Position numbers and translations under genes: made by a program. The notes under the pieces were generated by a model. It saw only the letters and a program-made list of their open reading frames with translations. It did not search any database and was not told the origin of the DNA. Of a stretch of DNA of 4,938 nt, positions 3,565 through 4,085 are shown piece after piece (the stretch's first letter is position 1; the number at the start of each line of letters is the position of its first letter). This DNA is from a virus (taxonomy: Duplodnaviria > Heunggongvirae > Uroviricota > Caudoviricetes): IMG/VR virus record IMGVR_UViG_2648501498_000015, one strand, 5' to 3'.

Positions 3565-3957
3565 CCGGAAAAAGGAAAGTTTGAGAAACGCGATCTGGCA
3601 CAGGCGGTTATTAATGCTGCCTACCTGGTGGCCTGTGCAGATGGTGAATGTGAGGCTTCCTAGAAAGCGAAGATCGAACAGGTACTGCGTAATCAGCCTG
3701 CGCTGTCCGCGTTTACGTCAGAAATTAATGCGATTAGCGCAACCATTATCGGTCAGCTGGATACGAACTTTAAAATTGGTCGTCGTGCGGCGTTACGTGA
3801 GATCGAGGATGTGAAACACGATACGCGTGAAGCGGAAGATGTGCTGGATGTGGCGGTGGCCATTGCGGAGGCAGACGGCGAAATTGAGCCGGAAGAGCGC
3901 AAGGTGCTGGAAGAGATTGCCGGTGTTCTGGGTCTTCGTCTGGAGAATCACCTGTGA
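3565..3957 (+). pseudogene. TerB-like (tellurite-resistance TerB / DjlA N-terminal-like) ORF remnant: no start codon, in-frame amber at 3661-3663
   Basis: The frame translates to PEKGKFEKRDLAQAVINAAYLVACADGECEAS*KAKIEQVLRNQPALSAFTSEINAISATIIGQLDTNFKIGRRAALREIEDVKHDTREAEDVLDVAVAIAEADGEIEPEERKVLEEIAGVLGLRLENHL*. It contains two copies of the hydrophobic-A-x-A-D-G-E...acidic motif typical of TerB domains. It is bounded upstream by TAA 3562-3564 with no ATG/GTG/TTG before the TAG, and no start codon after it until GTG 3811. Confidence 0.4.
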
Positions 3958-4085
3958 CGGTAAAACTGCGCCTGGCTGTGGCTGCACTCCTGCTGTTTCT
4001 GGTGGTGATGGTGGATTTCACCAGCAGAATCATGTCGGTGCTGGCGGATGGGGTGCTGATCTGCGGCATTGTGGTATTGCTGTAG
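3954..4085 (+). CDS. candidate 43-aa hydrophobic small protein (single predicted TM helix)
   Basis: GTG at 3954 overlaps the TerB-like stop (GTGA); GGAG at 3942-3945 lies 8 nt upstream. Translation VTVKLRLAVAALLLFLVVMVDFTSRIMSVLADGVLICGIVVLL, stop TAG at 4083-4085. A GC-rich hydrophobic ORF like this can arise by chance, so this is low confidence. Confidence 0.2.
   Translation: MTVKLRLAVAALLLFLVVMVDFTSRIMSVLADGVLICGIVVLL

Follow-up and report, generated by a model that had tools for sequence, protein, structure and literature searches.

An amber-truncated DUF3927/TciB-like gene next to a TerB-like pseudogene in a lambdoid prophage segment

The stretch of DNA analyzed here (referred to as the window) comprises 4,938 nucleotides and is a segment of a lambdoid prophage. 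Its genes and elements follow each other in the order sok/hok (1-288), a rem-like gene, a DUF968/ydfU-like gene, rusA, a Q-type antiterminator gene (2536-3357), a late promoter and terminator, a TerB remnant, the DUF3927 open reading frame (ORF) that is the subject of this study, STnc100 and AgvB. The locus at the left end is a type I toxin-antitoxin locus of the hok/sok type, in which sok RNA (73 bits) and a Hok-like ORF of 70 aa (76-288) were recognized. Just downstream of hok, a weak, sub-threshold match to the Hfq-binding RNA IsrK of Gifsy-1 was detected (297-378; 26.5 bits compared to a gathering score of 50, E=0.0085). The block from 119 to 2152, which covers hok, the rem-like gene and the DUF968/ydfU-like gene, shares 90.6% identity with the hokD-rem-ydfU module of Qin, a prophage of Escherichia coli K-12. 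Neither TerB nor DUF3927 is present in Qin, the prophage examined among those of K-12, and K-12 small-protein data sets could therefore not be used via Qin.

The Q-type antitermination protein gene is located on the + strand directly upstream of the late promoter and is annotated in a collinear genome by PGAP (WP_000762928.1). Its ATG at 2536 overlaps the stop codon of rusA (ATGA, 2536-2539), which makes this a second junction of the coupled type in the window. A lambda-like late promoter core and a tR'-like intrinsic terminator are located at 3383-3462 on the + strand, as judged from terminator prediction and from an alignment with the lambda sequence that follows Q; the aligned lambda bases are those of pR'/tR'. 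The promoter core (GGTAAATTTG..AACGATGGG, 3383-3405) contains the sequence TAAATT (3385-3390) and a pause-type element AACGAT (3397-3402). Terminator-like hairpins are found at 3391-3407 and 3438-3455, the latter forming the tR'-like terminator together with a T run (3438-3462). Since the Q gene and the pR'/tR'-like elements are located upstream, the cassette is part of the Q-dependent late transcript. In Stx phages the same slot downstream of Q and pR'/tR' is occupied by stx.

Downstream of the ORF, an STnc100 sRNA match (4129-4318, + strand, 119 bits) begins 44 nt after the ORF and 8 nt after the ancestral DUF3927 stop codon described below. An anti-GcvB sRNA AgvB match (4282-4343, - strand, 93 bits) lies over the 3' part of STnc100, with a weaker match to AsxR. 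The nearest genomes contain an additional 38-bp hairpin (AAAAATGCCCCTCTCCGGAGGGGCATTTTTTATGGGTA) at window position 4283, adjoining the AgvB 3' end. In the collinear genome, the next genes encode a SASA esterase and, beyond it and about 2.7 kb downstream of the ORF, a class II holin, as well as a lysozyme.

The ORF itself extends from a GTG start codon (3954-3956) over 43 codons to a TAG at 4083-4085 and represents an amber-truncated allele of a DUF3927/TciB-like ORF; its translation is MTVKLRLAVAALLLFLVVMVDFTSRIMSVLADGVLICGIVVLL (43 aa). The start codon overlaps the TGA stop (3955-3957) of the upstream TerB-like frame, generating the sequence GTGA (3954-3957). A Shine-Dalgarno-like GGAG on the + strand (3942-3945) is located 8 nt upstream of the GTG, within the last TerB codons (L-E-N-H-L). 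Thus, the ORF and its GTGA overlap, first proposed in a sequence-only reading of this DNA, were recovered at exactly the same positions on the + strand. The strong hydrophobicity and the use of frequent E. coli codons described there were also confirmed: the peptide has a GRAVY of 2.0, and CTG and GTG dominate the Leu and Val codons (8 of 10 each, with the start codon counted for GTG). Charged ends had been described as well, and this holds for the N-terminus with K4 and R6 but not for the C-terminal end (...GIVVLL), which is uncharged; a charged tail, PVIKRNSLHNA, lies beyond the TAG.

Altogether, 59 ORFs of at least 30 aa are present in the 4.9-kb window, so that a 43-codon ORF is at chance level by length alone. 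The case for a gene is thus carried by homology and conservation, the ORF alone not being above chance. The peptide matches Pfam DUF3927 (PF13064) with 44.2 bits (gathering score 25, E=1.9e-11), peptide residues 3-42 aligning to profile positions 2-41 of 53, and PHROG 1470, described as TciB-like, with E=1.5e-21 over positions 1-43 of 54. The core motifs of the family, that is K4, R6, D21-F-T-S-R25 and S28-V-L-A-D-G33, are retained in the 43-aa peptide, and the basic N-terminus, DFTS(R/K) and SVL(A/S)DG are invariant or nearly so in the family alignment and in distant representatives. What marks a full-length member, namely a length of about 50-55 aa, W/F-P-x-x-K and a C-terminal tail of polar/basic character, is missing in the window copy. 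The number of ORFs in the window and the STnc100 match only 44 nt downstream would suit a chance open frame or a non-coding stretch, for instance the UTR of the neighboring sRNA region. Both HMM matches argue against this, as do the frame, length and motifs kept across genera at a dS of about 1 and a dN/dS well below 1; these matches and the cross-genus conservation effectively refute such a reading, which we regard as extremely improbable.

The nearest complete genomes are 99.9% identical to the window over 991 bases. In the nearest genome, the identical ORF was annotated by PGAP as a DUF3927 family protein (WP_001344632.1) without a pseudogene flag, and a protein identical to the 43-aa peptide is already listed at NCBI under this name. 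The ORF at 3954-4085 is consequently an already catalogued gene (Pfam, PHROG, RefSeq) and not an overlooked one. The earlier remark that ORF callers routinely miss such genes does not apply here, because RefSeq/PGAP already annotates the same ORF; the proposal of a genuine gene for a small hydrophobic protein at a prophage cargo site is borne out by the DUF3927 and PHROG 1470 matches and by conservation. A tblastn search of a phage collection with the peptide recovered only the C-terminal half (9 records), owing to low-complexity masking of the first hydrophobic segment. Homologues were therefore gathered by HMM searches and pattern-based locus retrieval, and a scan of genome contigs yielded nine loci. 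No solved structure was found for the DUF3927 family.

Comparison with relatives showed where the window copy differs. Codon 44 is TAG in the window and TGG in the relatives, where it encodes the conserved Trp44 of the W/F-P-x-x-K tail. Past the amber codon, the ancestral C-terminal tail continues in frame on the + strand (4086-4121; PVIKRNSLHNA followed by TGA at 4119-4121). Full-length relatives end in ...VLLWPVIKRNSLHNA, and the close 55-aa relatives read ...GIVVLLWPVIKRNSLHNA* at their C-terminus. The alignment thus indicates that 43 aa is not the native length and that the window carries a TGG-to-TAG allele of a family of 50-55 aa; the 43-aa form, taken as native in the sequence-only reading, has to be given up, since relatives continue through TGG to 50-55 aa. 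Loss of the tail deprives the second hydrophobic segment of its aromatic/Pro cap and its basic anchor. A 43-aa product, if made from its own Shine-Dalgarno sequence, is most likely impaired or inactive.

The viral-contig scan is skewed to near-identical full-length E. coli alleles, and allele frequencies were hence taken from exact 60-mers. When exact 60-mers were compared with 5,426 complete E. coli genomes, 98 records matched the TAG form best and 609 the TGG form, which makes the amber allele the minority form. In lambdoid prophages of E. coli O157:H7 and other STEC, the 55-aa DUF3927 alleles (for example the proteins P0135 and P0014) show near 99% nucleotide identity to the window copy, and their first 43 residues are the same or differ at 1-3 positions. 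At codon 44 they read TGG-CCG-GTG... (WPVIKRNSLHNA), whereas the window reads TAG and has in addition a private V36I change (I36 codon at 4059-4061). Their locus is collinear with the window, with Q, TerB, DUF3927, STnc100/AgvB, SASA esterase and holin in this order. Over about 1 kb, V36I and the 38-bp indel are the sole differences between the window and the nearest genome.

The TerB-like frame upstream of the ORF (3566-3957, + strand) is a TciA-type pseudogene. It matches Pfam TerB with E=3.4e-11 and PHROG 632 with E=1.2e-59. Alignment to the intact TerB genes of two related lambdoid loci (L061 and L012) showed that homology starts near 3566; the frame lacks its native start codon and some 17 codons of the N-terminus, the 5' end being replaced upstream of ~3566. 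In addition, the frame contains an internal amber codon (3661-3663) where intact relatives have GAG, and PGAP annotates the upstream TerB-family gene of the nearest genome as a pseudogene interrupted internally by a stop codon. The frame also matches DjlA (NF006948, E=5e-6) and, with E=1e-3, DUF533, both weakly; the closest solved structure is that of Klebsiella TerB (2JXU, E=1e-7), and in PADLOC the TerB partner matches the candidate PDC-S48 only marginally (E=0.002).

In related lambdoid loci, a tRNA cluster (a CAT-anticodon tRNA plus Arg/Arg or Lys/Arg) is located between Q and TerB, and tRNA genes also surround the tciA-tciB pair of P1 and D6-like plasmid prophages; the positions recorded for such tRNAs are L012, 1039-1290; L016, 1650-1899; L013, 1652-1892; L061, 1745-1820; and L003, 14349-16009. 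By comparison with these loci, the window has lost the tRNAs together with the 5' end of TerB.

The TerB amber occurs beside an intact 55-aa DUF3927 gene in 41 of the 80 related viral contigs, and both genes are intact in about 35. Because it is common to so many contigs with an intact DUF3927 gene, the TerB amber is the older of the two lesions. This distribution also bears on a reading in which a suppressor reads through both TAG codons (TerB 3661-3663, DUF3927 4083-4085), so that both full-length proteins would be made. Both lesions are indeed amber codons followed by intact frames, and tRNA clusters lie just upstream of TerB in related prophages. However, no tRNA is present in the window, and the tRNAs of the relatives, which are Met/Ile(CAT), Arg, Lys and Ser, do not include one with a CUA anticodon; furthermore, the TerB of the window also lacks its start and N-terminus, and the ambers arose at different times, the one in TerB occurring in many loci with an intact DUF3927. 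With no suppressor tRNA in the window or its relatives, this reading was rejected, and we assign it hardly any probability.

To what extent the DUF3927 family is conserved was analyzed beyond E. coli. A frame of 50-55 aa has remained open in Franconibacter helveticus, Enterobacter (Franconibacter) pulveris and Pantoea stewartii, in an unclassified Enterobacterales genome (CwR94), two MAGs and a P1-like element of Escherichia sp., and in the phages P1 and 434. Pairwise Nei-Gojobori dN/dS values between genera range from 0.09 to 0.36 at a dS of ~1, a value close to saturation of the synonymous sites. When 1.84 billion representatives were searched exhaustively with a profile, this yielded only 118 clusters at 50% identity (E<=1e-3), whose members are typically 49-64 aa long. 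Their common architecture begins with a basic N-terminus and a hydrophobic segment, continues with DFTS(R/K), (M/L)SVLADG and another hydrophobic segment, and ends in W/F-P-x-x-K and a polar tail. These patterns of substitution and motif retention indicate that the DUF3927 family is a real protein-coding gene under long-term constraint.

The linkage to TerB is likewise conserved. A TerB gene is located directly upstream with a stop/start overlap in 8 of 11 diverse loci (P1 and seven others), the overlap having the form GTGA, TGATG or TAATG across genera; no adjacent TerB is present at the remaining three loci (phage 434, L006 and L010). Retention of the overlap across genera fits translational coupling, as had been suggested from the start/stop overlap in the window. 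This fit concerns the family; in the window, normal coupling is impossible because the TerB partner is a pseudogene. Natural TerB-DUF3927 fusions were not found among the profile-search hits; four apparent fusions (P0156, P0200, P0204 and P0177) were rejected as frameshift or mis-call artefacts.

Within E. coli, the picture is different. Close E. coli alleles have 8 nonsynonymous segregating sites, with the amber included, and 3 synonymous ones; these numbers are small, and the ratio is roughly the neutral expectation, which looks like relaxed constraint. Frameshift alleles were found around or just after a run of four G residues (4050-4053, codons 33-34) in the proteins P0103, P0111, P0091 and P0005, of which P0103 can be explained by a +1 G insertion and is present on 36 contigs. 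Several independent frameshift alleles in E. coli point to recurrent decay of the DUF3927 gene in prophages. Stops and frameshifts in homologues, which the sequence-only reading had named as evidence against the ORF, were thus found in the amber copy and in some E. coli alleles; the deep conservation nevertheless still identifies a coding family. Overall, the family is under long-term constraint, but recent relaxation is seen in these often defective prophage copies of E. coli.

Among the closest known relatives are those of phage P1, which carries an operon of tciA (TerB-like, 141 aa), tciB (54 aa) and tciC (35 aa) with a one-base overlap at each junction. The name TciB was taken from the P1 GenBank annotation and later papers. 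P1 TciB (YP_006541.1, 54 aa) is 52% identical to the window peptide over 42 residues, DFTS and SVL(A/S)DG being present in both, and P1 TciA is 42% identical to an intact lambdoid TerB; the pair was thus inherited and diverged together as a unit. Like P1 tciB, the window ORF directly follows a TerB-like gene with overlapping stop and start codons, and the P1 and lambdoid cassettes are alike in being phage cargo near tRNA genes. Unlike P1 TciB, the window copy stops at codon 44 without the WPILK-type tail; unlike in P1, its partner is a pseudogene and no tciC-like third ORF is present in the window. Furthermore, the P1 tci genes are located upstream of ban and downstream of the C1-controlled Pban operator, whereas the cassette of the window is lambdoid and on a late, Q-dependent transcript.

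The TciB of phage 434 (UMO75333.1, 52 aa) belongs to the same family and occupies the same slot between a Q-type antiterminator and the SASA esterase/lysis genes. It is preceded without overlap by a gene for a 247-aa putative membrane protein and not by TerB, and it is full length with a WPMMKEQNE tail, in contrast to the tail-less window copy.

The membrane topology of the peptide was evaluated next to the claim that it contains a single transmembrane segment. The hydropathy profile of the 43-aa peptide has two peaks (residues 11-17 and 37-43) with a polar dip at residues 21-29, and in the full-length form the hydrophobic span from L5 to V46 covers about 42 residues. A single bilayer crossing is doubtful since such a span is too long, and the claim is weakened further by the invariant DFTS(R/K) that splits the two hydrophobic segments. 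Conserved K/R residues are found at each end of the family members, and the DFTS(R/K) in the center has no net charge, so that the positive-inside rule favors a helical hairpin with both termini inside (N-in/C-in), as judged from the two hydropathy peaks and the basic termini. An AlphaFold2 monomer model, calculated with an alignment of eight sequences, predicted one continuous helix for residues 3-53 (pLDDT 85.8); this predicted single helix counts against the hairpin.

Considering the data on identity, linkage and decay, we think that the ORF is probably the tciB-type gene of a tciA-tciB cargo cassette, located downstream of Q in lambdoid prophages, that it encodes a membrane partner of TerB and that it has decayed in the window. 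Full-length TciB would be an inner-membrane peptide of 50-55 aa, translated by ribosomes that terminate on TerB, with the GGAG in the last TerB codons assisting. It may insert into the membrane as an N-in/C-in helical hairpin and could act there as partner or anchor of the soluble TerB-like protein. In E. coli, DjlA and YebE (DUF533) each combine a TM helix and a TerB-like domain within a single chain; TciB together with TerB would be the split equivalent of such proteins. DjlA and YebE differ in being single polypeptides, and their TM segments have no sequence similarity to DUF3927. Expressed from the Q-dependent late transcript, TciB would act in lytic (late) development. The cassette of the window is a decayed version, in which TerB has lost its 5' end and acquired an amber codon, and the small gene has lost its conserved tail through the change of W44 to amber.

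The membrane-partner role is our best guess, drawn by analogy from the gene linkage and the weak DjlA and DUF533/YebE matches of TerB. That DUF3927 has no TerB next to it in phage 434, L006 and L010, and that no natural fusion of the two was found, counts against a partner of TerB, and the 98 records with the amber allele and the lack of a PGAP pseudogene flag count against decay. The intact small gene beside an amber-broken TerB in 41 of 80 contigs may hint at a TerB-independent role, or at slow decay.

Some of these observations would also suit a product of 43 aa that is still made from its own GGAG/GTG and serves as a TerB-independent small membrane effector, that is a toxin, a superinfection-exclusion factor or a lysis modulator. 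The Shine-Dalgarno sequence of the ORF is at good spacing, the gene precedes the lysis genes on the late transcript, it stays intact beside a broken TerB in the contigs mentioned and lacks a TerB neighbor in phage 434 and L006, and the amber allele is found in 98 complete-genome records. On the other hand, the truncation deletes the family-wide W/F-P-x-x-K tail, and the nonsynonymous changes (8 compared to 3 synonymous) and the frameshift alleles in E. coli look like relaxed constraint. No match was obtained for the 55-aa form among the PADLOC-DB models, for the peptide among holin and toxin families in profile searches, or over 3954-4085 on either strand in Rfam at E<=1, and thus no antisense RNA family covers the ORF. 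Hok/Gef-type type I toxins, one of which is encoded at 76-288 in the window, are likewise small, hydrophobic and prophage-borne; unlike these, the ORF has no match to that family, no antisense RNA, two hydrophobic segments instead of one and is coupled to a TerB gene and not to a mok-like leader. In a CRISPRi screen, P1 tciA, tciB and tciC were non-essential for plaque formation, and knock-down of tciB was without effect on lytic growth (PMC10695390), which also speaks against an effector. Other papers repeat the homology-based name only, and a literature search on the DUF3927 family found no functional or expression data. The toxin, exclusion and lysis roles put forward in the sequence-only reading are therefore unsupported, there being no PADLOC, holin or toxin match and P1 tciB being non-essential, and we consider an effector of 43 aa unlikely. 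That TciB has a TerB-independent function, for example in membrane-level exclusion or lysis timing, with even the tail-less 43-aa allele active, seems to us quite improbable. If true, it would explain the open small gene beside a long-broken TerB and the TerB-less occurrence in phage 434.

The copy in the window matters little, since the gene is catalogued and this allele is degraded. The family may be of more interest, as a membrane peptide of 50-55 aa whose tight coupling to a TerB-domain protein is conserved in P1-like plasmid prophages as well as in lambdoid and STEC prophages. The TerB-TciB pair is a widespread phage cargo in the Shiga toxin slot and could shed light on TerB domains at membranes.
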